Assembly: GCA_963746175.1 (NCBI GenBank)
Contig: CAVVAH010000008.1
Span: 875,701 to 939,700 of the forward strand
Reading direction: 5' to 3'
DNA length: 64,000 nt
Source: an uncultured Actinomycetota bacterium
GTDB lineage: Bacteria > Actinomycetota > Actinomycetes > JACCUZ01
Shown in pieces: positions 7,307 to 47,216 of this stretch; position 1 is the first letter of the stretch, and each line of letters begins with the position of its first letter. Position numbers and translations under genes: made by a program. The notes under the pieces are model-generated. The model saw only the letters and a list, made by a program, of their open reading frames with translations, was not told where the DNA came from and did not search any database.

Positions 7307-7380
7307 TGGCTCCCGGGCGAGGGATCGAACCTCGATAGCTGACTCCAAAGGTCAGCGTCCTGCCATTGGACGACCCGGGA
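7307..7380 (-). tRNA. tRNA-Gln(TTG)
   Basis: Cloverleaf TCCCGGG../CTGAC-CT-TTG-GA-GTCAG anticodon arm/GGTTCGATCC T-arm, ends GCCA; usual position upstream of glmU. Confidence 0.95.
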
Positions 7381-11560: not shown

Positions 11561-12253
11561 TCATGCCGCGAGGAAACAGCCCTCGCGCAGCACGGGCACC
11601 ACGTCGCTGACGTCGACCTCGCCTGCCAGCCGGACGTCCTCGGCGAAGCCGCGCTCCACCAGCTCGATCCCCGAGGGGCACAGCTCCAGCGGTCGTAGGG
11701 CACGGAACGCGAGCGCCGCGACCTCCGCCTCGGGCGTCAGCTCGAGCGACGGGTTGCGACCGACCAGCCGGTCGACGACGGCACCGGCGCCGACCAGGTC
11801 CTCGTACGCCGGTCGCAGCGAGCCGTCACCCCACCGCTCGCCGGCGGGCACCAGCGCGATCCGCTCGAACGAGTCGAGGTAGCGGCTCACCGCGGCCGCG
11901 TTGCGCAGGCAGCCCGCGACGACCTGTACCTCGTTGTTGATCGCGGCGTACGCGATCGACGAGCCGTTCGGCGACGGCAGCACCAGCCGGGTGTCGGCGT
12001 CGACGTCGAGCAGGCTCAGCGGCGACAACGTGAGGCCCTCGTGCGAGTTGCGGTTGCCGGCGAGGACCGCGTCGATGTCACGGGCCAGCTGGCGGGCCGC
12101 CTCGCCACCCGTGTGCGGCCAGACGCGGGCGCCGCGCTCGACGGCGATGGTCAGTGCGGTCGAGAAGGACAGCACGTCGACCACGACGACGACGTCGCTG
12201 CGCTCAGCCAGCGTGCGGGCACCGAGCGGTCCCCACTCCAGAGCGACCCGCAT
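11561..12253 (-). CDS. 2-phosphosulfolactate phosphatase (ComB-like)
   Basis: VVVDVLSFST, LPSPNGS, GCLRNA, AGERW, EDLVGAGA. Confidence 0.85.
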   Translation of the reverse strand: MRVALEWGPLGARTLAERSDVVVVVDVLSFSTALTIAVERGARVWPHTGGEAARQLARDIDAVLAGNRNSHEGLTLSPLSLLDVDADTRLVLPSPNGSSIAYAAINNEVQVVAGCLRNAAAVSRYLDSFERIALVPAGERWGDGSLRPAYEDLVGAGAVVDRLVGRNPSLELTPEAEVAALAFRALRPLELCPSGIELVERGFAEDVRLAGEVDVSDVVPVLREGCFLAA

Positions 12254-33257: not shown

Positions 33258-34325
33258 GTGACCGCCCCGGACGGACCCGCCGGACGGCCGGCCCGGCTCC
33301 AGGACGTCGCCGCACGTGCCGGGGTGTCGGTGAAGACCGTTTCCAACGTCGTCAACGGCTACGTGCACGTGTCCCGGGACACCCGGGCGCGGGTCGACGC
33401 CGCCCTGGTCGAGCTCGACTACCGCCCCAACCTCGCCGCCCGCAACCTGCGCCGGGGCCGGTCCGGCATCGTCGCGCTCGCCCTGCCCGAGCTCGAGGTG
33501 CCGTACTTCGCCGAGCTGGCCCGGCACGTCGTGGAGGCGGCCCGGCAGCGCGGCTGGACCGTCCTCATCGACCAGACCGACGGCGAGCTGCACCGCGAGC
33601 AGCTGGTGATGGACGGCTACGGCACCCACCTCATGGACGGGCTGATTCTGAGCCCGATCGCGTCCGGAGTGCGCGAGCTCTCGGCCCGGCGGGCCACCAT
33701 CCCGATGGTGCTGCTCGGCGAGCGGATCTACGACGGCCCGGACGACCACGTCTCGATCGACAACGTCGCCGCGGCCACCACCGCAGTGCGGCACCTGCTC
33801 GACCTGGGCCGCCGGCGGGTGGCAGTCGTCGGCCGCCAGTCGCAGCCGTCGGCCCAGACGGCGCGGCTGCGCGAGCAGGGCTACCGGGAGGCGCTCGCCG
33901 CCGCGGGGCTGCCCTTCGACCCGGACCTCGTGGTCTCGACGGCCACCTTCACGCGGCACGAGGGGTCCGCCGCGGTGGACCGGCTGATGGCCCTCGCCGA
34001 GCCGCCGGACGCGATGTTCTGCTTCAACGACCTGCTGGCGCTCGGGGCGCTGCGGCGGCTGCACGAGCTCCGCGCCCGGGTGCCCGGCGACGTGGCCGTG
34101 GTCGGCGTCGACGACATCGAGGACAGCCGCTACGCGACGCCCACCCTCACCACCATCCGGCCGGACAAGGCACGCATCGCGCGGCTGGCCGTGGGACTGC
34201 TGGCCGACCGGATCGGCGATGCCTCGACCGGTGCTGTACGCCCGCCGCGGGAGCTCGAGGCGCCGTACGACCTGGTGGTGAGAGAGTCGGCACCAGCAGC
34301 GCCGCCTGGAGGAACGAGGTTCTGA
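33258..34325 (+). CDS. LacI-family transcriptional regulator (probable arabinose-locus repressor)
   Basis: LQDVAARAGVSVKTVSNVVN HTH, YRPNLAARNL, FCFNDLLALG, VVRES; TACCCT -10 7 nt before GTG. Confidence 0.93.
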   Translation: MTAPDGPAGRPARLQDVAARAGVSVKTVSNVVNGYVHVSRDTRARVDAALVELDYRPNLAARNLRRGRSGIVALALPELEVPYFAELARHVVEAARQRGWTVLIDQTDGELHREQLVMDGYGTHLMDGLILSPIASGVRELSARRATIPMVLLGERIYDGPDDHVSIDNVAAATTAVRHLLDLGRRRVAVVGRQSQPSAQTARLREQGYREALAAAGLPFDPDLVVSTATFTRHEGSAAVDRLMALAEPPDAMFCFNDLLALGALRRLHELRARVPGDVAVVGVDDIEDSRYATPTLTTIRPDKARIARLAVGLLADRIGDASTGAVRPPRELEAPYDLVVRESAPAAPPGGTRF

Positions 34326-35110
34326 TGCGGGCCGTACGGGTGCACGCGCCAGGTGGGATCGAGAACCTCAGCCTGGACGAGGTCGAACCACCACGGCCCG
34401 GTGCCGGCGAGGCCCTGGTCCGTGTCCACGCTGCCGCGATCACCCGGGACGAGCTGGACTGGGTCAGCGACCGTCTCCCGGCGATCCCGTCCTACGAGCT
34501 GTCCGGCGTCGTGGCGGAGGACGCGGCCGGACACCCGGCAGGCGAGGAGGTCTTCGCGCTCACGCCCTTCGATCGTGACGGCGTGGCGGCGGACTACGCG
34601 CTGGTGCCGGTCGACGTACTGGCCGCCAAGCCGCGTTCGTTGAGCCACGTGCAGTCGGCTGCGCTGCCCATGCCGGCGCTCAGCGCCTGGCAGGCACTGA
34701 TGGTCCACGGTCAGCTGCAACCGGGAGAACGGGTCGCGGTCACCGGCGGACACGGCGGTGTCGGCCATCTGGCGACACAGCTGGCCAGGAGCAAGGATGC
34801 GGTGCTCGTTCAGGACGGCCTGGAGTGCGACCTCCTCTTCGACACCGTCGGGGGTGATGCGCTGGCCAGAGCAATACGGCACGCAGGTCGCGTCGTGACC
34901 ATCGCAGCCGAGGCGCCGGGCGCGCACTACTTCATCGTCGAGCCCAGCCGCGACCAGCTGCTCGAGGTGGCGCGCCTCGCCGATGCCGGGGAACTGGCGC
35001 CCCAGATCGACTCGACCTTCCCGCTGCACGAGGCGACGGTGGCGTTCACCCGCATCACGGCTCGCGGGAAGCACGGCAAGGTGGTCCTCGAGGTCAGCGA
35101 GCAACGCTGA
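34325..35110 (+). CDS. NADP-dependent MDR/quinone-oxidoreductase-like protein (short form)
   Basis: LVRVHAAAI, IPSYELSGVV, GGHGGVG, DTVGG, HGKVVL; only 261 aa. Confidence 0.82.
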   Translation: MRAVRVHAPGGIENLSLDEVEPPRPGAGEALVRVHAAAITRDELDWVSDRLPAIPSYELSGVVAEDAAGHPAGEEVFALTPFDRDGVAADYALVPVDVLAAKPRSLSHVQSAALPMPALSAWQALMVHGQLQPGERVAVTGGHGGVGHLATQLARSKDAVLVQDGLECDLLFDTVGGDALARAIRHAGRVVTIAAEAPGAHYFIVEPSRDQLLEVARLADAGELAPQIDSTFPLHEATVAFTRITARGKHGKVVLEVSEQR

Positions 35111-35144
35111 CGTCCGGGCGCGCGACCCTCTGACCGCCGGATGC

Positions 35145-35189
35145 GGGTGGAGCTGAGGGGACTCGAACCCCTGACCCCTCGTTGCGAAC
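35145..35189 (-). repeat. Duplicated 3' half of tRNA-Ala(CGC) (att site)
   Basis: Identical to 46095-46140 except one C missing in the C-run; extends through the anticodon loop. Confidence 0.92.
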
Positions 35190-35572
35190 TCGCGGCAGGG
35201 GGGTCGTTGATGGTCATTCATGCAGGTCAGTGACCCGCAATGGTCTGCACGAGACGCGTTTGGTCGGTGCGGCTGCTGTACTTTGCTGCTGTAGTTCCTG
35301 CCGTCGACGGGGTCAGTTGACAACGGCCGGCGCTGGTGGCCTAGCTCGTTGATCCACACCGACGAACGCCGGCCATGCGGCCGTTCACCGGTGAACCAGG
35401 ACGACGTCATTGATGGTCGGTCTTCACCGACCATCAATAACGTCGTATCAGGCGGTCCGCGGGCGTCCGTGTCAGTCCGCCGGCCGAGTGCTCGGCGGAC
35501 CAGGAGGTGGAGGCCGTCACAGCTGAGATCGTGTCGTTGGCAAGGGCCAAGGTGACCAGCCAGTCTGGATAG

Positions 35573-35737
35573 ATGGCCGGCGAGCAGATCAGTTGCGACC
35601 AGTGCGGCGAGATGATCGTCGGCGAGTTCTGGCTACTCGACGGCGACGGCCGGCGCGTAGAGGAGTCCGATCGGCCGGCGGCGTTCACGCTGCACCCGGA
35701 GTGCCTGGGGCCGTGGCGAGTGGCTCGCGGGGGCTAG
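35573..35737 (+). CDS. 54-aa putative zinc-binding microprotein (CxxC...HxxC)
   Basis: Manual translation MAGEQISCDQCGEMIVGEFWLLDGDGRRVEESDRPAAFTLHPECLGPWRVARGG*; below the ORF-track cutoff. Confidence 0.55.
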   Translation: MAGEQISCDQCGEMIVGEFWLLDGDGRRVEESDRPAAFTLHPECLGPWRVARGG

Positions 35738-35767
35738 TCCGGTCTGCGCCCTGACGATCACGACCGG

Positions 35768-35982
35768 TCAGACGGCCCGGACCTGGGCCCGGACCCGGAC
35801 GTCTGAGTGGCGCTCTTCCACGGCTGCCAGGGCGTCGTCGATGGCCTCCTGCGGCCCCTGCGACTGGCACGGTCCACGTGGTGCCTGACTCGCGACCCTG
35901 GCGTTCCCGGACCTCCACTCCGCGGTCCCGCAGCTCGTCGACCAGGACTCTGGCGAAGTAGGGCGGACCGGTGGACACCACA
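35768..35982 (-). pseudogene. Possible frameshifted small gene
   Basis: Protein-like reading VSTGPPYFARVLVDELRDRGVEV.. switches frame near 35860 to QGPQEAIDDALAAVEERH.. Confidence 0.3.
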
Positions 35983-36319
35983 TCGCGTTCGACGTACTCG
36001 TTGCGCGGAGCTTCCGCCCAGCGGGGGTCGATCAGCGAGGGATGGTTACCGGGCAGCCGACGATCGAGGCCCTGCTTCGCACGCTCCACCTGGTCGCGCT
36101 CCCAACCCAGCAGACCCGGATAGCCGGCCAGCAGCTGGCCGATCGTGCACTGATCGAACCGCTTCGAGCACCGGCATCGACCGCCGTCCAGCTCGCGATG
36201 GTCGACACGGATCTCGATCACATAGCGGAACGCGCGTGGACGGGACTTGAACGCCCGGTCGGCCCTCTCCCGTGCCTCCTCCAACCCCGACGAAGAAGGC
36301 CAGCGGCGGGACGTTCTGC

Positions 36320-36538
36320 GCGGCTGCCGGGCAGCCGAGCCCAGGGCAGCAGCAACGACAGCCCGATGATCATGGCGGCCAGGAGGCCGCCCAGCAGGAA
36401 GACCCCAGACCGGCGCATGTCGGTCAGGGCAAGCACCCCTATCGCACCCAGTGCCGTCAGTGCGAACGGCAGCACTCGAGCCAGCACGCCGGAACCGACC
36501 AGGGGGCCGGCCGAACTCGGGTGATCGGTGGAGGACAC
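36320..36538 (-). pseudogene. Truncated N-terminal membrane segment of a sensor-like protein
   Basis: GGAGAA RBS, GTG 36538, two TM helices (ARVLPFALTALGAIGVLAL; VFLLGGLLAAMIIGLSLLLPW), then loss of protein-like sequence. Confidence 0.35.
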
Positions 36539-36852
36539 AAGGGTGTTCTCCACCCACAGCGCCGACGTGTTGAGGGATTGTGTACGGAGATGTACCGAAC
36601 TCGAGCCGAGGCTTTCCGGTCTCCGCGCCGCCGGCCAGCTCATTCGCTCCCAACGTTCGCGTGCACTGCTCGACGGGCGCCGGAGTGGCGGCCTCTCGGG
36701 CGATCGGGCCGAAAGACATGGTTCACCGGTGGCGGGCCAACGACGGAGACGAGGCACCGGGACCAGTGACGCGCGGCACGAGCACGGTCGCCGTCCCGAC
36801 CTGGTCCGCTGGAGGTCGGGCACGTGATTGCTTGGCGACGCGTTTCCCGGAC

Positions 36853-37395
36853 ATGTCGAAGGACTCTGGACGCCTGTCCGTCGTGACGCTGGCGGCAGCT
36901 GCGCTGATCATCGCCGGATGCAGCGCCGAACCAGCCACCCCTGAAGCCACCGGGCCACGATCACTATCCACAGCAGCAACGCCGCCTTCGCCTTCCGGCG
37001 GAACCCCCGCGCCAGACACGACCGGCTCCCCCACCAGCCTCGGCGTCACCATCACCACCGGGGACAGCGCATTTGGCGCGATCCTGTTCGACTCGGCGGG
37101 CCAGGCCATCTACCTGTTCGACACCGAAACGACCGGCCAGCCCGCGTGCTACGGCGCGTGCGCCAAGGCATGGCCACCGGTCCTCACCTCCGGTGCCCCA
37201 CAGGCAGCCCGCGCGACCCGAGCACAGCACCTGGGCACCACCGAACGCACCGACGGCACGACCCAGGTCACCTACGCCGGGCACCCGCTGTACTACTACG
37301 CGCACGAAGGTCCCGGACAGGTGCTCTGCCACAACGTGCGCGAGTTCGGCGGCCTCTGGCTCGTCGTCACACCCAGCGGCGGGCCCGCCGCCTGA
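36853..37395 (+). CDS. Secreted lipoprotein with Yx(FWY)xxD repeats (COG4315)
   Basis: IIAGC lipobox; GQAIYLFD..CYGACAKAWPP..QVTYAGHPLYYY..GGLWLVV. Confidence 0.85.
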   Translation: MSKDSGRLSVVTLAAAALIIAGCSAEPATPEATGPRSLSTAATPPSPSGGTPAPDTTGSPTSLGVTITTGDSAFGAILFDSAGQAIYLFDTETTGQPACYGACAKAWPPVLTSGAPQAARATRAQHLGTTERTDGTTQVTYAGHPLYYYAHEGPGQVLCHNVREFGGLWLVVTPSGGPAA

Positions 37396-37851
37396 AGTCC
37401 CATCCGCGCATGCCGAGACCCGGGGGGTGGCCATCGACCCTCGGCCGACACACGTGTGCCGCATCCTGCGACACCGGCGCCCTGACCGGGATCCGTGCAT
37501 GAAGGTCGCTCGGGTACGTCCCCCCACCTTTCACCCACCATCAATGGCGTCGTATCAGGCCATCCGTCCGAGTCCGCCGGCTTTCGGTGCGTGGTCATCC
37601 GTGGCGGTGCAACTGCCGCCCCGCCGTCCAACGGCGGCAGTGGCCGCGGGCTTGTATTGATCTTGCTCTCTTGCCGTGGGCGCGTGTCGCGGAGCTGGCT
37701 ACCGGTCGGGAGAGGTAGGCGCGCCTCGAGACCCAGACGGGGCGCCGCTCCTACTGGGCGTGTCCCTGGTCGGCCGCAAGCGCGCTCGTCCGCCGAGGGA
37801 TGGGTGAAGCCGCGGTCAGCCCTGGCCCCGGATTGGCTCTCGCAGTCTTTG

Positions 37852-38295
37852 TCAGTGTCGAGGCATGAGCTCGATCGCCACTGGTCTCCCCGGTGACTCC
37901 GGAACGCAGCAGGTGAGGTCGTTGCGGCACTGCGCCAACGGGGGCTCGGCGTCAAGCGACGCGCGGACCGTGTCGAGCTGGGCGGAGAACTGCTGGAGCT
38001 CGGCGATCCTTTCGGCGATCTCCGCCTGCTTCTGTTCGACCAGCCGGCCGACGCGCTCGTGCGCGGCGCCGCAGTTGGTGCCGGCCCAGATCGGGATCAG
38101 CGCAGTGATCTGCTCGCAGCGCAGCCCCATTCGGCGGGCCCGGGTGATGAACCGCAGTCGGGCTGCCGCGTCGTCGGCATAGTCGCGGTAGCCGGCTGCC
38201 GTGCGAGCCGGAACGGCCATCAGCCCGACCCGTTCGTAGTACCGCACCGTCGAGGTCGGGACCCCCGCGGATTCGGCGAGCTCGGAGATCCGCAC
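37852..38295 (-). CDS. MerR-family regulator with Cys-rich C-terminus
   Basis: RISELAESAGVPTSTVRYYERVGL..GYRDY..LRFITRARRMG; C-terminal QCRNDLTCC. Confidence 0.9.
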   Translation of the reverse strand: MRISELAESAGVPTSTVRYYERVGLMAVPARTAAGYRDYADDAAARLRFITRARRMGLRCEQITALIPIWAGTNCGAAHERVGRLVEQKQAEIAERIAELQQFSAQLDTVRASLDAEPPLAQCRNDLTCCVPESPGRPVAIELMPRH

Positions 38296-38302
38296 ACGCC
38301 CC

Positions 38303-38370
38303 ACGGTAAACCTTGCATCCGGGTGCAGGGTCAAGGTCTTGACTTTGCACCCGAGTGCAAGTTCTACCTT
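38303..38370. promoter_or_regulatory. Back-to-back MerR-type promoters with 20-bp spacers and TGCA dyads
   Basis: + strand TTGACT(38339-44)-20 nt-TACCTT(38365-70) with TTGCAC-CCGA-GTGCAA; - strand TTGACC(38334-29)-20 nt-TACCGT(38308-03) with a related dyad. Confidence 0.78.
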
Positions 38371-38417
38371 CCAGATCGCGACCGGACACTCCGGTCTCCA
38401 GACCCGGGAGGGACGCC

Positions 38418-38774
38418 ATGGGAACCTTCAGCCGCGACAACACCGAGCTCGCCGTCGACATGGACGGGGCCGGCCAGCAGCATCGTGCCGAGGCGGGCGG
38501 GATGACCATCGCCCTCGAGCGATGGAACGCCGGACTCGACACCGCCGAGTGGTTCGCCGACCTGCCCGGCGGCGCCTGCCAGGAGCCGCACTGGGGCTAC
38601 TGCCTCCAGGGCAAGGTGACCATGAGGTACAGCGACGGTGAGACCGAGGTCCTCACCGCCGGCCAGGCCTACTACATCAGGCCCGGCCACAACGCCCACA
38701 TCGACGACGACGCCGAGTTCGTCGAGTTCACCAGGGCCGACCGGACGCCCGGCATCAACACCGTCGAGCTGTAG
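38418..38774 (+). CDS. Small cupin-domain protein
   Basis: LPGGACQEPHWGYCLQG..AGQAYYIRPGH; GGGAGG RBS. Confidence 0.8.
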   Translation: MGTFSRDNTELAVDMDGAGQQHRAEAGGMTIALERWNAGLDTAEWFADLPGGACQEPHWGYCLQGKVTMRYSDGETEVLTAGQAYYIRPGHNAHIDDDAEFVEFTRADRTPGINTVEL

Positions 38775-39001
38775 CCGGGCTTCGACGTCCTCGCCCGCCA
38801 CCATCGAACCGGCACGGCACGCTTGCCGAAATTCGGGCCCGGCGACCAGCCAAGGTTGGGTTTGTGACGTGGTGTTCTGCTTCGAGGTATCTCCGCACCG
38901 CGTCGAGGAGAACATCCCGGCGCCGTTTGTCCCATCGTTGCCATCTGACCCAACCGGAGTGATGCGGGAAGCGCTGCCTCGGCTCGTGCGATGATCCGCG
39001 A

Positions 39002-40657
39002 GTGACCGCACAGGTCCCAGAGCTCGTCGCCGATGGTCGCTCCGCGCTACGTCGCGGCGACGCAGCGACCGCTCGGCTCATCTTCGAACGCGCACCGACC
39101 GAACCAGCATCCGGTGATGTGATCGAGGGGTTGGCCCGCGCCTCCTATCTCGAGCGCGACTATTCGCGGGCCATCGAGGATTGGGAGCGCGCGTACGCCG
39201 CCCACCGCGACGCCGGGGACCTGCTCGGCGCCGTGCGCGTCGCACGGACACTCGCCTACATGCACGGCGCGATCCTCGGCGACGCCGCGGTCATGAGCGG
39301 GTGGCTGGCCCGCGCGACGACGCTGCTGGGGGACGGGAAGTCGCGCGAAGGCGGGTGGGTGACGCTCCAGCGCGGGATGTTCGAGGGCGACCGTGCCCGG
39401 AAGGAACTGCACTTCCGCGCGGCGCTCGAGGTGGCTCGCCGTTTCGGTGACGCTGACTTGGAATTCGGGACGCTCGCGTATCTCGGGGCGAGCCTCGTCC
39501 ATGCTGACCGGACCGAGGAGGGCATGTTGCTGCTCGACGAGGCCCTCGCGGCGGTGGCGGGCAGTGAGGTGGACGACTTCTGTGTCCTGGAGGAGATCTT
39601 CTGCCAGTTGTTCTCGGCTTGCGAGCGGGCGCACGACGTCACGCGCGCGGATCAGTGGATCCGCATCGGTGAGGCGATTGCCGAGCGACGACGGCTGCCG
39701 GCGGTCTCGGCGTTCTGCCGCACGCACTACGGCGGGCTGCTGACCACCGCCGGTCGGTGGCTCGAGGCGGACGTCGCGCTGACCGAAGCCGTCCGGCTCT
39801 GGGGCCTGGGTCAGCGTTACCTGCGCGGCGGTGCACTGGCGCGGTTGGCTGACCTGCGGGTCCGGCAAGGGCGCTTCGAGGAGGCCGAGCAGCTGCTCGA
39901 CGGCATCCACGACGACGTCGACGCCGCCCGTCCGCTCGCGGCCATCCAGCTCGCCAGGGGAGACGTCTCACTCGCCAGAGACACCATCGAGCGCGCCCTG
40001 GACCAATTCGACCCGCTGAGTACGGCAACTGCGCCGCTGGTGAGCCTGCTCGTCGACGTCTATCTCGCCGGCGACCTGCTCGATCAGGCCGAGGTCGCGG
40101 TGGACAGGCTGGTGGCCTGCGCAGCCCGTCACGCGAGCCCCTATCTGCTCGCCGTCGCGGCGCTGGCGCGCGGGCGGCTCAGTCTCGCGACGGGCGTGGG
40201 CGACCCGCAGGCGTGCTTGCGTGAAGCCCTCCTCGGATTTGCCCAGGCCCAGATGCCGATGGAGCTGGCCCACTCCCGGCTCGAACTCGCCAAGGTGCTG
40301 CTCACGGACCGTCCCGAGGTGGCCATGGCCGAAGCGCGGGCCGCGATGGAAGCGTTCGACCGACTTCAGGCGGCCCGCGACGCGGACTCGGCCGCCGCGG
40401 TGTTGCGGTCGCTCGGGGTGCGGACCGCGTCGGCCAGGAAGGGTGGCGGACTACTGACCAAGCGCGAAGCCGAGGTGCTCGACCTGCTGGGCCTCGGGCT
40501 GTCCAACCCGGAAATCTCCGAGCGCCTCTTCATCAGCCGCAAGACCGTCGAGCACCACGTCGGCAACATCCTCGCCAAGCTCGGCCTGCGCAGCCGGGCC
40601 GCGGCCGCCGCCGCAGCCGCGGGCTACGCCGCCCGCTCGAAACAAGGCGCGGAATAG
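39002..40657 (+). CDS. LuxR-family regulator with helical (TPR-like) N-terminal region
   Basis: C-terminal LTKREAEVLDLLGLGLSNPEISERLFISRKTVEHHVGNILAKLG. Confidence 0.88.
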   Translation: MTAQVPELVADGRSALRRGDAATARLIFERAPTEPASGDVIEGLARASYLERDYSRAIEDWERAYAAHRDAGDLLGAVRVARTLAYMHGAILGDAAVMSGWLARATTLLGDGKSREGGWVTLQRGMFEGDRARKELHFRAALEVARRFGDADLEFGTLAYLGASLVHADRTEEGMLLLDEALAAVAGSEVDDFCVLEEIFCQLFSACERAHDVTRADQWIRIGEAIAERRRLPAVSAFCRTHYGGLLTTAGRWLEADVALTEAVRLWGLGQRYLRGGALARLADLRVRQGRFEEAEQLLDGIHDDVDAARPLAAIQLARGDVSLARDTIERALDQFDPLSTATAPLVSLLVDVYLAGDLLDQAEVAVDRLVACAARHASPYLLAVAALARGRLSLATGVGDPQACLREALLGFAQAQMPMELAHSRLELAKVLLTDRPEVAMAEARAAMEAFDRLQAARDADSAAAVLRSLGVRTASARKGGGLLTKREAEVLDLLGLGLSNPEISERLFISRKTVEHHVGNILAKLGLRSRAAAAAAAAGYAARSKQGAE

Positions 40658-40727
40658 GGGAACTCCCCGATCCCGCTACGCCCGGCTCCCGTCATCGTCA
40701 GACCACCGACGAGGTGGAGGACGAGAC

Positions 40728-41948
40728 ATGGACACGACCTACGACGTGATTGTTGTGGGAGCACGATGCGCCGGCGCACCAACCGCGATGCTGCTGGCTC
40801 GCAAGGGATATCACGTGCTGCTGGTCGACCAGGCATCGTTTCCGAGCGACACCCTCTCGACGCACATGATCCATGCGCCGGGCGTGGCCGCGCTGAGCCG
40901 CTGGGGGCTGCTCGACCAGGTAGTTGCCTCCGGGTGCCCGCCGGTCGACACCTACTCGTTCGACTTCGGGCCGTTCACGATCAGGGGCACGCCGCGACCG
41001 CATGACGGCAGCTCCACGGCGTATGCGCCGCGCCGGACGATCCTCGACAAGATCCTCGTCGACGCCGCTGACCGCGGCGGGGTCGAGGTTCGCGAGCGCT
41101 TCACCGTCGACGAGGTGGTCGTCGAAGACGGCGCGGTCGTCGGCGTCCGGGGCCACGGCGAGGACGGCAGGCAGGTGACCGAGAGAGCCCGCGTCGTGGT
41201 CGGCGCCGACGGGCGCAACTCCCACGTCGCGAAGGCCGTGGACATCGAGCAATACCACAACAAGCCGAAACTGCAGTGGAGCTACTACACCTACTGGCGC
41301 GACCTGCCGGTCGACGGTTTCGAGATCTTCGTCCGTCCCGACCGGGGGTGGGCCGCGGTGTCGACGAACGACGGGGTGACCATGCTCGTCGTCGGGTGGC
41401 CGTTCGCCGAGTCGATGGCCTACAAGGCCGACTTCGAGGCCAACTACCTCAAGACCCTCGAGCTCGCGCCCGAGTTCGCCGAGCGAGTCCGCGCCGCGAC
41501 GCGGGTAGAGCGGTTCTACGGCGGGTCAGTCCCGAACTTCTTCCGCAAGCCCTTCGGCTCCGGATGGGCGCTGGTCGGTGACGCTGGCTACAACAAGGAC
41601 CCCATCACCGCCCAGGGGATCAGCGACGCGTTCCGCGACGCGGAGCTCTGCTCCGCGGCCTTGGACGAGACGTTCACCGGCCGGCGCTCGTATGACGAGG
41701 CGATGGCCGACTACCAGCGGACCCGCGACACCCACGTGCTGCCGGTCTTCGAGTTCACGACGCAACTGGCCACACTCGAAGCCCCGCCCGAGCAAATGCA
41801 GCAGCTGCTAGGCGCCGTGCACGGCAACCAGAACGCCATGGACGACTTCGTGAGTCTCACCGCCGGAACCGTGTCGCCGGTCGAGTTCTTCGAGACCGAG
41901 AACATCGGGCAAATCCTCGGCGCCGCCCAGGCGGCGTACGCGACCTGA
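40728..41948 (+). CDS. FAD-dependent oxidoreductase (geranylgeranyl-reductase-like)
   Basis: VIVVGARCAG, VVGADG, LVGDAGYNKDPITAQGISDA; GGAGG RBS. Confidence 0.88.
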   Translation: MDTTYDVIVVGARCAGAPTAMLLARKGYHVLLVDQASFPSDTLSTHMIHAPGVAALSRWGLLDQVVASGCPPVDTYSFDFGPFTIRGTPRPHDGSSTAYAPRRTILDKILVDAADRGGVEVRERFTVDEVVVEDGAVVGVRGHGEDGRQVTERARVVVGADGRNSHVAKAVDIEQYHNKPKLQWSYYTYWRDLPVDGFEIFVRPDRGWAAVSTNDGVTMLVVGWPFAESMAYKADFEANYLKTLELAPEFAERVRAATRVERFYGGSVPNFFRKPFGSGWALVGDAGYNKDPITAQGISDAFRDAELCSAALDETFTGRRSYDEAMADYQRTRDTHVLPVFEFTTQLATLEAPPEQMQQLLGAVHGNQNAMDDFVSLTAGTVSPVEFFETENIGQILGAAQAAYAT

Positions 41949-41960
41949 AGGGAGCAACCA

Positions 41961-42290
41961 ATGAGCCTGTTCGCCGTCATCCGTGAGGCCGGTCCGAGCT
42001 GGACCGAAGGAAAAGGCGCCTTCGAACAGCCCGCGGTGAACGACCACGCAGCCTTCATGAACAAGCTCGCAGAGGATGGCTTCGTGCTGTTCGCCGGCCC
42101 GCTCGCCGGCAGCGAACACGACCGCATCCGAGTGCTTCTGATCGCGGAGGCCGCCAGCGAAACCGACATCCACCGCCGTCTCGCCGACGACCCCTGGCTA
42201 CGCACACAACGACTGGTGACCACGAGCGTCGAGCCGTGGAATCTTCTCGTCGGCGCAGAGCGCCTCGGCGCGCAGCCAGCGGCCTACTGA
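41961..42290 (+). CDS. YciI-like protein
   Basis: HAAFMNKLAEDGFVLFAGPL..LADDPW; AAGGGAG RBS. Confidence 0.75.
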   Translation: MSLFAVIREAGPSWTEGKGAFEQPAVNDHAAFMNKLAEDGFVLFAGPLAGSEHDRIRVLLIAEAASETDIHRRLADDPWLRTQRLVTTSVEPWNLLVGAERLGAQPAAY

Positions 42291-42930
42291 GCTGGAAGTC
42301 AGCTGCCACTGACCCGTGAATGTCCTTTCGTCGCCAGGCGTCAGCACCGGGCCAAGCCCGGTTGGAGTTGGGCATTCCTCGAGGTCTCATGCTCGTTACA
42401 ACGAAGGCACGGGGGGCCTCGTCGACGTTTCCTACGACGGGCACATCGGCGAGTTGTCGGCTGAACCTGGTGGGAAGCTTGCCGCGCTCCGTCAGCCATC
42501 GGCCTTTCCGGGAGGCTTCACCCGAACGCGAAGCGTCCACCGAGGGGGATGCCGATGGCGTATGCATCGGAGGCAGGCCCACCTGTCGGCTTCTTGGCGC
42601 GGTAAGTCCGGCTTCGCCAGGCCGTCGATCGGCCCGGCAGGAGGGTCGATGAAGGTCTTCGCCGAGGTCAGACGGCCGGACGGTGGTCGCCGTCCACAGC
42701 TGCTCCTTCAGGTTCGAGCAGAGCGCTCGGGTCGAGCCGCCGCGGCTCGGCAGCGTCCGGCGACGCCCTCGCCGGGGCGTCGATGATGGTGATCCGCCGT
42801 GGACCGCTCTGGACGGAGTCCCGCCGTACGGGGACGGGCGCAACGGCTCTTCCTCGTCGGCGAAGTCTGCACATCACCGAGGCTTGCCGATCATTCGACT
42901 CGCCAGCGGCCGGTTCGTCGGGTCGAACCT

Positions 42931-43786
42931 TCAGGTGCCGGTGTGTCGGAGGAGAAAGGCGATGGTCGCCTCGATGACGGCGGGGGTGATGGCGTGGTCG
43001 GTGTCGGGGAGGACGGCGAGTTCACCGGACGGCAAGTTGCGGTAGGCGAGCGCGCCCTCCTCGACCGAGCAGAAGGGGTCGCGGTCGCCGGTGAGGATCA
43101 GCGTCGGTGCGGTGATCGACCGGAAGTCGTCGAGGGTGTAGCCCGGCGAACGGGTGGCGCGATCGAAGAAGATGCGCACGTACTCCCGCCAGTGGCCCTC
43201 ACCCTGGGCGCTGTCGTAGTCGGCCTTCATGAGCGCCAGCGTGGCGGCCATCGGCGGCATCGACTGCAAGGCCCGTTCAGCGGCATCGGGATCGCCCTCG
43301 GTGGCCTCGGGGCTGCCACCAAACAGCACGCGGCCCATCTCGAAGATCGGCGCCTCCGGAACGAAAATGTCGTAGCCCGCGTGTGCCGCCAGCGCCCGGA
43401 CGGCCTCCGGTTGGCGGATGGCCACCACCGTCGCGATGGCGGCGCCATCGGAGAACCCCGCCAATAACGGACGACCAAGGCCGAGCGAGTCGATGAGCGC
43501 CATTACGTCGTCGGCAAGTAGCGCGTAGGACACGGTGCCGGCGGTGTGCACGGTGGCGCCGCTGCCCGCGCGTGTCGGGGGCGATGACCCGGAAGTGCTT
43601 GGCGAGCGTGGCAATCTGGTGCACGTAGGCGACTGGACTGTCCGCCCAGGCGGGTCCGGTCGAGACGAACCCGCCGTGGAGCAGGACCAGCGGCGGTCCG
43701 TCGCCGGCATCGACGTATGCGATGTCGGTGCCGTTGGCTCGGACGAGCTGGGCTCCCCGTTCGGCGAGGGTTGCTTCGGTGATCAC
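42931..43786 (-). pseudogene. Alpha/beta hydrolase with a +1 frameshift
   Basis: N-part (PPLVLLHGG..RVIAPDTRG) and C-part (SGAT..GFSDG nucleophile..GDRD..DH) are in different frames; one extra base in the C-run at 43565-43567. Confidence 0.8.
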
Positions 43787-43864
43787 GGGTGGGCTCCCTT
43801 CAGCGGTCCACCGGATCGTGCGCCCCGGCGTGGCCTTCGGCATGGGGGGTTCACCCCATCTTCG

Positions 43865-45442
43865 TCACGAACCGCCCGGAAACCCTTCCTCCGGGAGCAG
43901 GCCCTGCTGCATGGCAAACAGCCCTGCGGCGGCCCGGCTGCTGGCGCCGATCTTGGCGTAGATGTGCTCGATGTGGTTGCCGGCGGTCTTGGGGGCGATC
44001 ACGAGGCGCTCGGCGATCTGCTTGTTCGACAGTCCCAGGGCCAGAAGCTTGAGGACCTCGACCTCGCGGGCGGTGAGACCTGCGGGACCGTCCTGACGGC
44101 GAGGGACGCGGTGGCCAGCGGCGGCGAGCACGGCGTCGACGGCATCGGCATCGAGGTGCCCGGCCCGGACCGAAGATCGCAGCTGGGCGGCGGCCGCGGT
44201 CGCGGTGTGCGCCGGCCGGTGCGGACGCTCCTCGCGCATCGCCTGGTAGGCGTCGGCGGCACCGAGGATCCGGGCCAACGGGGAGATGGTGCTGCCGGGC
44301 AATCCCCGGGGATACCCGGAGCCGTCGAGGCGTTCGCGTTGCTGGACCACGATCCTCGCCAGCGGCGCCAGCGCGTCGGACTGCTGCAACATCCGCTCGC
44401 CGTAGTACGGGTGCAGGCGCACGCGCTCCCACTCGCCGGCGCCGAGCGGGCCGGGCTTGTCCCAGATCGCGTTGGAGACGCCCAACCGGCCGAACTCGTG
44501 CACGAGCCCCGTTCGGTGCAACGTCCGGATCTCGTCGTCGCTGAGGTTGAGATGGCGTCCGGCGGCCGCCGCCAGCTCGGCCACGGCGACCGAGTGCCCG
44601 AGCATGTACGGCGACTTCAGATCGACGAACTCGGCGAGAGCCCGCAGCGCCCGGTCCACGGCGGACCCCGACAGCACCACCGCGAGCGCCGGCTCCGCGT
44701 CGATCACCGTCTGCCAGGTCCCGACATCGGCCAACCCGTCGAAGACCTCGGCCGCATGGTCGCACAGCGTCTGGACGAGGGTCGGATCGAACTGCGAGCC
44801 CGAACGCCGCTGCGCGATCTCTCGTGCCCCGGTCGTGCCACCCGTGCGATAGGCCACCTCGACGTACTCGGCGAGCTGCACGATCCGCGACGCCAGCGGA
44901 GCAGCGTCACCGGCGACCTTCCCCGGCCAGCCTTTCCCGTCCCACCGCTCATACGAGCACGCCAACGCCGACCCCACCTCGGTGGGCAGGTCGAGCCGCT
45001 CGGCCAGCTGCCGGGCAAGCGAGGCGTGCTGGGCGAGCATGTCGTCGACATCGTGCCGCCCCGAGACAGCGAACTCGACGCCGGCCCGGATTCGGTGCAG
45101 CGGTGAGCCGCCGGCGCCGAGCATGCGCACCATTCCTAGCGCCTCGCGGACCGATCGAGGTTCGTAATCGAACTTGGTCGACTTCAGGGCGATGTCGTCG
45201 CCGAACCACTTCGCCTGCTCGTGGGCATCGGAATGGCAACCGACGTTTACCAGCAATGCGCTGTAGTACACGACCGCACGAGCATCGTCATCGAGCCCGA
45301 TCCGTTCCGCGACCCGAAGCGCGATGAGACACTGTCGCAGCACGTGCTCCATCGGCTGGCTGAACCCGAGATCGATGCCCAAGGACAGCGCGGCCACGAT
45401 TTCGGCGAGCCGAACCGGCGCACTGCCGGGCATATTGGCCAT
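43865..45442 (-). CDS. Tandem HD/HD-GYP-like domain + LuxR HTH regulator
   Basis: RLAEIVAALSLGIDLG, YERWDGKGWP, DLKSPY, ERLDGSGYP, GLTAREVEVL..KTAGNHIEHIYAKIG; start approximate. Confidence 0.88.
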   Translation of the reverse strand: MANMPGSAPVRLAEIVAALSLGIDLGFSQPMEHVLRQCLIALRVAERIGLDDDARAVVYYSALLVNVGCHSDAHEQAKWFGDDIALKSTKFDYEPRSVREALGMVRMLGAGGSPLHRIRAGVEFAVSGRHDVDDMLAQHASLARQLAERLDLPTEVGSALACSYERWDGKGWPGKVAGDAAPLASRIVQLAEYVEVAYRTGGTTGAREIAQRRSGSQFDPTLVQTLCDHAAEVFDGLADVGTWQTVIDAEPALAVVLSGSAVDRALRALAEFVDLKSPYMLGHSVAVAELAAAAGRHLNLSDDEIRTLHRTGLVHEFGRLGVSNAIWDKPGPLGAGEWERVRLHPYYGERMLQQSDALAPLARIVVQQRERLDGSGYPRGLPGSTISPLARILGAADAYQAMREERPHRPAHTATAAAAQLRSSVRAGHLDADAVDAVLAAAGHRVPRRQDGPAGLTAREVEVLKLLALGLSNKQIAERLVIAPKTAGNHIEHIYAKIGASSRAAAGLFAMQQGLLPEEGFPGGS

Positions 45443-46097
45443 TGGGATCGACGCTACCGCGTGACGCACAACCAGGTGCCCGAAGGCTTCTGCCGCGCCG
45501 CTCGGCAGCCCCACCCTCGGGATAGGCAAGGGAGTCACCTCTACCTGGGTGAGCGCAGTCCCTCCGGCAACTTCAGGTTCCGCTCCGGGGTCCACCCACC
45601 GCGTCGAAATCAACGCGTGAGTCATCAGCGAGCGTTCACGTTCGGCCCGGCGAACCGCCTTGGCCCGACTCTTGCGACCCATGTCATCCACCCCGGTAAG
45701 AAGCTCCTGGATTTCTATGTGCCTGCCGGTCCGGCGAGCCGAGGGGTGGAGCGGCACTGACTTTCCGACTCCCCGAGGGGGTGACAACAACCGTTGTCAC
45801 TCGTGATGCCAGAAGAGTGACGCGGATGATCTTGCACGGGACAGCACGGATGTGATCTGGGTCTGCGCGAGGCGACACGACAGTGAGTGGCTACGGCGGC
45901 TGGGCTGAGGCGAAGTCTCGGGTGAAGGCGATGGGCGGTGTTGGCGCCAGGGTCAGCTCGGCAGAGACCCGGACCGCGCTGAGGCGCCTCGGCGAGCAGC
46001 TCCAAGGCGAGTAGCCAGATGATCTGCTGCAGTATTTTGCTGCTGTACTCGGCCGATTCGAAGATCATCCCGACAGCGGATGTGCGTCTGACCTGGG

Positions 46098-46170
46098 TGG
46101 AGCTGAGGGGACTCGAACCCCTGACCCCCTCGTTGCGAACGAGGTGCGCTACCAGCTGCGCTACAGCCCC
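46098..46170 (-). tRNA. tRNA-Ala(CGC)
   Basis: GGGGCTG acceptor, CCTCG-TT-CGC-AA-CGAGG anticodon arm, GGTTCGAGTCC T-arm; CCA not encoded. Confidence 0.95.
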
Positions 46171-46204
46171 TGGTGGAGACGTCGAGGTTACCAGGAGGCT
46201 GTGG

Positions 46205-47095
46205 TCAGTCGTTCACCGCGCGGCGGTGGATGATCGCCTCGAGCTGGTCGTCGGCGTCCTCGGCATCGGCCACCAGAGCCGACATCCCGGAGGCGGCCGG
46301 CGACGGCGCAGGCGCCTCGTCGGCGACCCGGGCACCGTCCAGCCGGGCCTCGCTCCAGGCGCCCGGCTTCGTGAGGTCGATCGGCGGCGCGCGGCGCGGT
46401 GCCGGCGGCTTGCTGACGTACGTCGGGAGCGGCACCGGGACCGGGTCCCAGCGACCGGCCTCGTCGGCAGTGCGCCGCTCCTCCTCCTCGCGCACCTGGC
46501 GCTCGGCCTCCTCCGCGGCGGCCCAACGGGCGTTCTCGGCGGCCCGCTCCTCGGCCAGCTCGCGGCGTACCGACATCAGCTTGTCGAGCGCGTCGAACCG
46601 CGTCAGCCGCGACCGCATGCTGCGACGGACCGCCGCGCGCGAACGCGAGACCTCACGGCTGCTGCGGACCTGGGCCCGCAGGTGCGCGAGGTCGGCCACG
46701 GTGAGGACCAGCAGCGCGACGGGCACCCACCACGGCACGGGGCTCAGCGGCGTGAGCACCGTGGCGACGAGCGTCGACAGCAGCAGGCCGGCCAGGATGC
46801 GCCGACGGCGGACCGAGGCGCTCGTCGGGCGGCGGGTACGACGGGCGGTGACGGTGCGCTGGGCCGGCAGCGGTGTGCGGGCCGGCAGCGTCCGCTGCGG
46901 CGCAGCCGGGCGGCGGGGCATGACGACCTGGCGCTGGTCGGGGGTGGCGTCCTTGCGGGACAGGATCCGCATCGCGTGGTCGAACTTCTCCACCGACCGC
47001 GACTCGGAGAGCTCCTCGTGCCGCCTGAGCCATCGCGGGATGAAGTACGCAGCCCACATCACGATGATGACCGCGTAGATGATCCCGCTCCCCAC
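46205..47095 (-). CDS. Divisome-associated membrane protein GlpR/SepX-like
   Basis: N-terminal TM (IIYAVIIVMWAAYFIPRWLRR), RRRR-TM-TM, WDPVPVPLPTYVSKP, RRAVND end; position between rimJ and tRNA-Ala. Confidence 0.8.
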   Translation of the reverse strand: MGSGIIYAVIIVMWAAYFIPRWLRRHEELSESRSVEKFDHAMRILSRKDATPDQRQVVMPRRPAAPQRTLPARTPLPAQRTVTARRTRRPTSASVRRRRILAGLLLSTLVATVLTPLSPVPWWVPVALLVLTVADLAHLRAQVRSSREVSRSRAAVRRSMRSRLTRFDALDKLMSVRRELAEERAAENARWAAAEEAERQVREEEERRTADEAGRWDPVPVPLPTYVSKPPAPRRAPPIDLTKPGAWSEARLDGARVADEAPAPSPAASGMSALVADAEDADDQLEAIIHRRAVND

Positions 47096-47216
47096 CCGCG
47101 TCACGGTAGGGCGCAGCGCACGGCGCACCGTGGACCTGCGCCGGTGTGTCGCACGATCAGTCCTGGGGCTGGTGTGACGACTGTGACTCGAGGGTGGGAC
47201 AGGACCCGGGACGGCA

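Follow-up and report, generated by a model that had tools for sequence, protein, structure and literature searches.

The locus at positions 35145-46140 of the 64,000-nt window (the whole stretch of DNA analysed, to which all coordinates refer) raises the question of what kind of element came to lie between a tRNA-Ala(CGC) gene and a second, partial copy of that gene, and of whether this element can still move. Two explanations were offered in a preliminary description: a non-autonomous element mobilized in trans, or a decayed element that kept its cis-acting sites and gained unrelated genes. The second matches the evidence from the attachment (att) cores, the arm-type sites, an integrase tail and the cargo genes. 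The island (35145-46140) is very probably a decayed pSAM2-type integrative and conjugative element of actinomycetes (AICE) at tRNA-Ala(CGC), which has kept both att cores and their arms, has lost its int, xis, repSA and transfer genes and now contains foreign cargo.

The tRNA-Ala(CGC) gene was located by ARAGORN at 46096-46170 on the minus strand. The proximal att core (46095-46140) and the distal one (35145-35189) lie 10.9 kb apart and were 97.8 % identical over 46 columns in a blastn alignment (45/46 nt), the difference being one C of a C5 run that is deleted from the distal core. The duplicated tRNA 3' half with one missing C, noted in the preliminary description, was confirmed, and it was the sole fragment of its kind: no further piece of tRNA-Ala(CGC) like 35145-35189 was present in the 3.94-Mb genome (nine contigs, 95 % complete). 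Duplication of a tRNA 3'-end identity segment at the element ends is a trait of pSAM2-type AICEs, and takes the form here of a 45-nt repeat. The G+C content of the island was 0.687, compared with 0.709 and 0.740 in the flanks.

Just inside the att cores, on the same strand, lie two tandem motifs (35272-35293 and 46026-46047) that are identical at 20 of 22 positions; paired 9-mer repeats flanking the identity segment are a further trait of pSAM2-type AICEs. The proximal motif is situated 11 nt past the stop codon of an integrase remnant and 48 nt ahead of the tRNA 3' end. As a single unit, the 9-mer GCTGCTGTA occurred 29 times in the genome on both strands, against approximately 17 expected copies. 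The tandem form (at most one mismatch per half, spacer of 2–8 nt) gave seven matches, five of which were clearly poorer, and the sole near-perfect copies genome-wide were those at the two island ends. The paired tandem motifs described earlier at both ends were therefore confirmed as confined to these ends in their near-perfect form, and the inverted boxes GCAGGTCAG (35222-35230) and CTGACCTGG (46088-46096) were also present.

The remnant comprises the final ~21 codons for a tyrosine integrase of the pSAM2 type, in a frame that ends at the TAG codon at 46012-46014. It was identical at 20 of 21 aa to the integrase tail of G019 (...VAMQVLRHSQITMNGYGEVSSAETRTALRRLGEQLQGE*), a genome of the same bacterial family, and, over 19 aa, shared 68 % identity with the C-terminal end of an intact integrase of 423 aa. 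When intact integrases of other genomes were compared with the island, they matched 45946-46005 with 56–68 % identity over 18–19 aa and nothing else in it consistently. DNA homology of the window to the elements of G019 and of two further family genomes, G013 and G007, starts exactly at 45951, and the same tail ends the integrase genes or pseudogenes of the relatives at the equivalent place; the tail in G007 (...VAMQVLRHSQISLTMNVYSEVSSQETREALKRLGSELQGT*) includes the RH...Y catalytic end. Whereas a tyrosine integrase gene by attP is characteristic of pSAM2-type AICEs, only the ~21-codon tail is left in the island. The term 'integrase-less' used in the preliminary description thus holds for an intact gene, given that a six-frame search of the genome with PF00589 gave no match in the window and Pfam no integrase among the 26 open reading frames (ORFs) of the region, but it does not hold for the tail at 45952-46014, which is the kind of integrase remnant that the description had said would speak against its own proposal. 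The four PF00589 matches elsewhere in the genome were two Xer-like proteins and two weak fragments on other contigs.

The organization of intact members of this family was seen in a prokaryote-wide scan for the motif with one genome per species, which yielded at least 120 loci. Among the matches listed, 55 of these loci were of a proximal type, with a tRNA T-arm signature 35–115 nt past the motif, and in 38 of the 55 ARAGORN found a tRNA on the opposite strand 38–62 nt from the motif. A strict test assigned 13 of the listed loci to a distal type, with the order tRNA fragment, AGGTCAG and motif, and left 52 in neither type; of the latter, 17 were low-G+C chance matches in other phyla and several more were distal ends by eye, with a tRNA fragment too short for the test. 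The target tRNAs in the same list were of at least 10 species (Ala-CGC/TGC/GGC, Pro-CGG/GGG, Lys-TTT, Arg-ACG, Val-CAC/TAC and Met), and the hosts included Streptomyces, Micromonospora, Amycolatopsis, Actinoplanes, Saccharothrix, Pseudonocardiaceae and others.

Among the loci listed, 11 possessed an intact, stop-free integrase frame (416–583 aa between stops) that ended just before the motif, with the tail consensus ...VTMEIYxQxSSxxTRxALKRLGxSL. These 11 integrases were 50–76 % identical to one another over their full length, and both PF00589 and Phage_int_SAM_3 were detected in all four that were tested. RepSA (PF20199, E 1e-143 to 1e-161) was encoded upstream of the integrase in loci L059, L060 and L055, and an HTH_17 Xis preceded the integrase in L079; by tblastn, RepSA was found in seven loci and Xis in 16, the G007 element among them. 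The gene order in the intact loci whose interior was scanned was RepSA-Xis-Int, which is the backbone of a pSAM2-type AICE. The repSA-xis-int-attP module is given as the hallmark of such elements in passages of PMC2440964. The integrases of the motif family (L038-L094) also contained a cysteine-rich insert, CQCC...CC...CC, between the SAM-like and catalytic domains (alignment columns ~140-170), which may bind metal.

The inverted boxes recurred across the family. Among the matches listed, 42 of the 55 loci of the proximal type had a YTGASC box adjoining the tRNA, compared with 6.7 % in the control, and a GSTCAR box lay 25–75 nt ahead of the distal motif in eight of 13 distal-type loci (control 6.5 %); both boxes are beyond chance and are features of the element family. 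The CTGACCT box is considered to be element-borne, because no box of this type was found in the native tRNA trailers of the element-free genomes G033 and G008. At a guess, the boxes could be core-flanking sites for the integrase or Xis. A G+C-rich hairpin was also present within the spacer of many intact elements.

The same design has been described for pSAM2 of Streptomyces ambofaciens and pACPL of Actinoplanes sp. SE50/110. According to passages of PMC3364876, the pACPL attP identity segment lies between two repeats of 21 nt that are built of tandem 9-mers and are very like the arm-type sites of pSAM2; the pSAM2 repeats are said there, with reference to Raynal (2002), to be bound by integrase and to be essential for efficient recombination. 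The island and its family share with both elements the integration in the 3' part of a tRNA gene, an identity segment of ~43–58 nt, an int gene beside attP in a repSA-xis-int module (in the island's intact relatives) and, as far as those passages of PMC3364876 describe it, a 21–22 nt repeat, composed of two 9-mers in tandem, to either side of the identity segment. They differ in that the island has the 9-mer GCTGCTGTA with a 4-nt spacer, compared with GTCACCCAG and a 3-nt spacer in pSAM2 and pACPL, in that its target is tRNA-Ala(CGC), and in that int (but for ~21 codons), xis, repSA and the transfer genes have been lost, with unrelated genes in their place. Since the motif is conserved on both sides of the att core across a large tRNA-targeting integrase family, we infer that the tandem repeats behave as integrase arm-type sites, and analogy with pSAM2 and pACPL together with co-occurrence makes this interpretation well founded. 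Family-wide conservation and the agreement with the published design likewise support the earlier suggestion that the two ends are att sites and the paired repeats putative arm-type sites. No description of GCTGCTGTA as an arm site was found in the openly searchable literature, older subscription papers being outside the search.

Heterobivalent tyrosine integrases such as those of lambda and L5 have arm-type sites on both sides of the core. The island family resembles them in this respect, and by analogy its integrases would possess an N-terminal arm-binding domain. Unlike lambda and L5, the arms are two tandem pairs in the same orientation, the core is a 45-nt tRNA identity segment and no accessory-factor sites are known.

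Integration would have proceeded by tyrosine-integrase recombination of attP with the 3' part of tRNA-Ala(CGC), with a crossover within the identity segment, between the anticodon loop and the 3' end. The tRNA gene would have been rebuilt by this event and a 45-nt copy left at the far end. When the two ends are joined, the predicted family attP consists of the int stop, 11 nt, an arm pair, 48 nt ending in CTGACCT, the 45-nt core, 32 nt, GCAGGTCAG, 41 nt and the second arm pair. The 9-mer pairs would be bound by the N-terminal domain of the integrase, as in pSAM2 and pACPL. In structure the island fits a cis-mobilizable element (CIME); it would now be fixed, and would move only if a related AICE arrived with Int and Xis.

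Decay of this kind was also seen in relatives. The motif was sought in 39 genomes of the window's bacterial family, including two unpublished ones without the motif (G012 and G037); the order to which the window belongs holds only this family, and the order-level search covered the same set. Five other genomes carried the tandem motif (G007, G013, G019, G020 and G023), in four of them ~48–56 nt from the tRNA-Ala(CGC) 3' end. G007 and G023 also possessed the distal arrangement of tRNA fragment, ~85 nt and motif, and the distal arm of the window was 84 % identical to that of G007 and 80 % to that of G023. The integrase was decayed or missing in all five: only the tail was present in G013, the gene of G019 had a frame shift near its end and was cut by the contig end, that of G007 was fragmented, interrupted by a TAG stop and missing ~70 codons, the HxxR box among them (xis being kept), and there was no integrase trace in the elements of G020 and G023. 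A 9-mer variant with a T-to-A change, regarded as a mark of cis-site decay, made up three of the nine motif copies of the bacterial family and was found in none of the 11 intact-integrase loci, in a search whose pattern admitted only this variant and would miss other mutated copies. The island interiors were unrelated between genomes and consisted of miscellaneous, partly fragmented genes.

Between the window and G013, 68 of 76 positions of the integrase tail, 20 of 22 of the motif and 45 of 49 of the spacer were identical, which gives ~89–92 % for tail and spacer compared with ~77–80 % for the neighbouring host DNA. The two nearest relatives of the window, G033 and G008, had no element, no att copy and no motif. 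Because the remnants in the window and G013 are closer than the host DNA, and because the nearest relatives are element-free, a history in which one AICE lineage invaded repeatedly and then decayed is inferred to fit better than a single ancient insertion. The two remnants start within some 10–40 nt of each other near GGTCAGC, a sequence within the integrase tail that is similar to the conserved AGGTCAG box (window 45951-45960; L014 of G013). This region may be a deletion hot spot; a common deletion breakpoint in the two genomes was rejected, since the breakpoints were not identical and the upstream sequences were unrelated.

A comparison of the locus in relatives, proposed earlier as a way of finding an empty tRNA-Ala site, showed that the two nearest syntenic relatives were differently filled and that none was empty. 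In G033 and G008 the flanks corresponded to those of the window as far as 34289 on the left and from 46095 on the right, and the interval, of 4.86 and 6.4 kb, was occupied by other genes (methyltransferase, YetF, TetR, MFS; redoxin, PqqD, nucleotidyltransferase). The tRNA-Ala(CGC) locus is a hypervariable hot spot. An ADH-like gene (34325-35110; ADH_zinc_N_2, ADH_N) lies outside the att-bounded island and was absent from the syntenic loci of G033 and G008; the hot spot of variation therefore extends beyond the island (34290-35144). The outer left flank at 35127-35144 (ctctgacc...ggatgcg) is similar to the end of the element's own proximal spacer, which may be a matter of chance or a trace left by an earlier element at this tRNA. 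The 1-nt deletion in the C5 run was common to the distal cores of the window and G007 (L017, ~12026-12061), the G023 copy being intact, and reflects either recurrent slippage or common descent of the distal arms.

G007 itself contained a 22-kb decayed element between two 45-nt tRNA fragments and two arm motifs (G007:C5:12000-45999; L016/L017). This element has retained xis and fragments of an integrase pseudogene. On the outer side its proximal fragment adjoins a different integrase (485 aa), and the intact tRNA-Ala(CGC) gene lies on a separate contig; the arrangement looks like a tandem, accretion-type array. In addition, contigs G026:C66, G032:C18, G034:C79, G011:C25, G031:C116 and G007:C10 held 34-nt tRNA-Ala 3' fragments or tRNA-Ala genes, together with integrases that were only 36–38 % identical to those of the motif family, near another tRNA-Ala gene; these places lacked the GCTGCTGTA motif. 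The bacterial family may therefore contain another AICE-like lineage besides the one with the motif.

Gene content of the island was examined with Pfam (26 ORFs) and NCBIfam (17 ORFs), and the features are listed in Table 1. Neither search identified an integrase, excisionase, replication, transfer or phage-type gene among the island ORFs. The xis, RepSA and Tra/Spd genes that belong to a pSAM2-type AICE were thus not found in the island; for FtsK/SpoIIIE-type Tra and Spd this refers to the 26 ORFs searched with Pfam and the 17 searched with NCBIfam, a six-frame FtsK_SpoIIIE search not having been made. No common element genes were detected when the island proteins were compared by tblastn with all fetched related loci. 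In the segment 35800-36570 the codon-position signal was weak and shifting, and this segment is probably degraded. A 344-aa ORF at 35685-36719 on the minus strand was rejected as a gene, with no family match and a poor codon-position G+C pattern (0.76/0.64/0.68).

Table 1. Features of the island and their positions in the window
Feature	Position	Strand	Remarks
Distal att core, attR-type	35145-35189	-	Copy of tRNA-Ala(CGC) 3' part through anticodon loop
GCAGGTCAG box	35222-35230	+	32 nt inside distal core; inverted partner of CTGACCT box
Distal arm-type site (putative) GCTGCTGTACTTTGCTGCTGTA	35272-35293	+	GCTGCTGTA-CTTT-GCTGCTGTA; agrees with family consensus
Small ORF, 54 aa, CxxC...HxxC	35573-35734	+	Strong codon-position G+C signal; just inside distal arm; no family assignment
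Secreted lipoprotein (Lipoprotein_15 / SCO0930-like)	36580-37395	+	Pfam, NCBIfam
MerR-family regulator	37852-38334	-	Pfam, NCBIfam
Cupin-domain protein	38355-38774	+	Weak match under Pfam cut-off
TPR + LuxR/GerE-type regulator	39002-40657	+	Pfam, NCBIfam
FAD-dependent monooxygenase (FAD_binding_3)	40728-41948	+	Pfam, NCBIfam
YCII-like protein	41961-42290	+	Weak Pfam match
Alpha/beta hydrolase	42931-43710	-	Pfam, NCBIfam
HD-GYP-type (HD_5) phosphohydrolase domain fused to LuxR/GerE HTH	43865-45790	-	Pfam, NCBIfam
Integrase remnant, last ~21 codons	45952-46014	+	..RVSSAETRTALRRLGEQLQGE*; pSAM2-type tyrosine integrase; catalytic residues gone
Proximal arm-type site (putative) GCTGCAGTATTTTGCTGCTGTA	46026-46047	+	GCTGCAGTA-TTTT-GCTGCTGTA; 2 changes from consensus
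CTGACCT box	46088-46094	+	Abuts tRNA 3' end; within CTGACCTGG (46088-46096)
Proximal att core, attL-type	46095-46140		tRNA-Ala(CGC) 3' end through T arm, variable loop and anticodon loop (plus-strand reading)

AICE remnants, tandem AICEs and AICE-seeded islands have been described previously, and passages of PMC2440964 report Sco3997, Sare1208 and the SCO6806 island (tRNA-Pro, S. coelicolor) as decayed AICEs at tRNA genes, which the present island resembles. The SCO6806 island is described there as flanked by 43-bp direct repeats, its non-AICE genes being explained by later insertions. As far as those passages of PMC2440964 go, SCO6806 and Sco3997 have kept an integrase and Sare1208 has no clear att sites, whereas the present island has clear att sites and arms and only the tail of an integrase.

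The machinery that could mobilize the island was not detected elsewhere in its genome. With the 11 intact integrases as tblastn queries no homologue of the family integrase was found in the window genome, the only match being weak and Xer-like, and the 436-aa integrase of L059 gave no match at E<=1e-15. RepSA and Xis of relatives had no tblastn match in the window genome, whilst the positive control matched seven and 16 loci, respectively; a six-frame search with PF20199 also gave no match, but neither did the control genomes. Mobilization in trans, the first of the two earlier proposals, thus found no support in the genome, which lacked a detectable cognate integrase, Xis or RepSA and in which the proximal arm carries two substitutions and the distal core a 1-nt deletion.

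A related possibility, that the island is a still-mobile non-autonomous element, similar to a CIME or an integrative and mobilizable element, and is moved by Int and Xis of an AICE of the same arm family in trans or after tandem accretion, is considered unlikely. Both att cores, the arm pairs and the inverted boxes are kept, and with attL and attR retained the island structurally fits a CIME as defined in passages of PMC5704250. The same source describes CIMEs derived from streptococcal integrative and conjugative elements, which can sit in tandem with incoming elements, as in G007, where a second integrase abuts the decayed element; in the passages concerned, however, CIMEs are defined for elements of Firmicutes, for which mobilization after accretion was shown, and the parent of the present island would be a replicative AICE of Actinomycetota. 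The identity of ~89–92 % between the remnants in the window and G013, compared with ~77–80 % for host DNA, suggests that the remnants are younger than the genus split. Besides the lack of cognate Int, Xis and RepSA, mobility is opposed by the decayed or missing integrase in all six motif-carrying genomes of the bacterial family (the window's included), by interiors that are unrelated between genomes and hence have not spread as units, by the two changes from the consensus in the proximal arm, with an A variant seen in 0/11 intact-integrase loci, and by the deletion in the distal core. No joint of 35145-35189 and 46095-46140 was found in four soil-metagenome runs (X1-X4) searched over 34000-47000 as contigs of ~5x or less, a coverage too thin to bear on excision; the sole long skip, from 34975 to 46097, occurred in one contig with a short side of 20 nt, under the reliability limit, and was off the att borders. 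There is a slim chance that any incoming AICE with GCTGCTGTA arms could excise and carry the island by means of its cores, arms and CTGACCT/AGGTCAG boxes. If so, this would explain why the cis sites are kept while the integrase has been lost every time in the bacterial family; the island would, among actinomycete elements, be the first reported hitch-hiker of the CIME type, and one arm-site code would be common to integrases aimed at at least 10 different tRNAs.

Insertion at tRNA 3' ends, with direct repeats of a similar kind left behind, is also known for many phages and islands, and no AICE backbone gene is left in the island, so a remnant of a temperate phage or of another non-AICE tRNA-targeting island, with repeats unrelated to recombination, was also considered. 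This is very improbable: the tail and motif match a family with intact members in RepSA-Xis-Int modules and not in the company of phage genes, the island contains no phage-type gene, and the placing of the repeats to either side of the core is constant over many genera and tRNAs. It is hardly credible that the tRNA-fragment repeat and motifs represent chance similarity or an assembly artefact. The genome is a nine-contig assembly and metagenome contigs break inside the repeat, but 45 of the 46 nt of the repeat agree, the 3.9 Mb of the genome contain no second motif pair of this kind, the same architecture is found in independent assemblies and contigs of run X1 cover 30 of 30 bins of the stretch.

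Several points weigh against the interpretation as a decayed pSAM2-type AICE. Its AICE origin is deduced from ~63 nt of integrase tail and from non-coding att and arm sequence, no backbone gene being left in the island. Since AICEs rarely carry cargo, according to passages of PMC2440964, the 10.9 kb of unrelated genes call for extra, unobserved insertions and deletions. The relatives compared offered no clean empty tRNA-Ala site, G033 and G008 being filled with unrelated DNA. For the predicted binding of the integrase to the GCTGCTGTA repeats, the grounds are analogy and co-occurrence. For RepSA, absence is based on tblastn with its positive control, the PF20199 controls having stayed silent, and, with 95 % of the genome recovered, a cognate element could lie in the unassembled part.

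As a decayed AICE, 35145-46140 would be a fixed mobile-element scar at a hypervariable tRNA hot spot, and its regulator and enzyme genes would be foreign cargo and not core genes. The comparison also yields a sequence-level picture of attP for a widespread clade of pSAM2-type integrases, with tandem GCTGCTGTA sites on both arms, inverted CTGACCT/AGGTCAG boxes and a tRNA-derived core; across this clade the arm sites are constant and the tRNA target varies. Should experiments bear it out, this picture would be of use in defining the limits of AICEs and of AICE remnants in actinomycete genomes and in the selection of minimal attP fragments for vectors.

Adjacent to tRNA-Ala(CGC), a gene at 46205-47128 on the minus strand encodes a SepX/GlpR-type divisome protein (NCBIfam NF050099, 182 bits) and is syntenic in relatives. 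The window contains a second tRNA gene, tRNA-Gln(TTG), at 7307-7380 on the minus strand.

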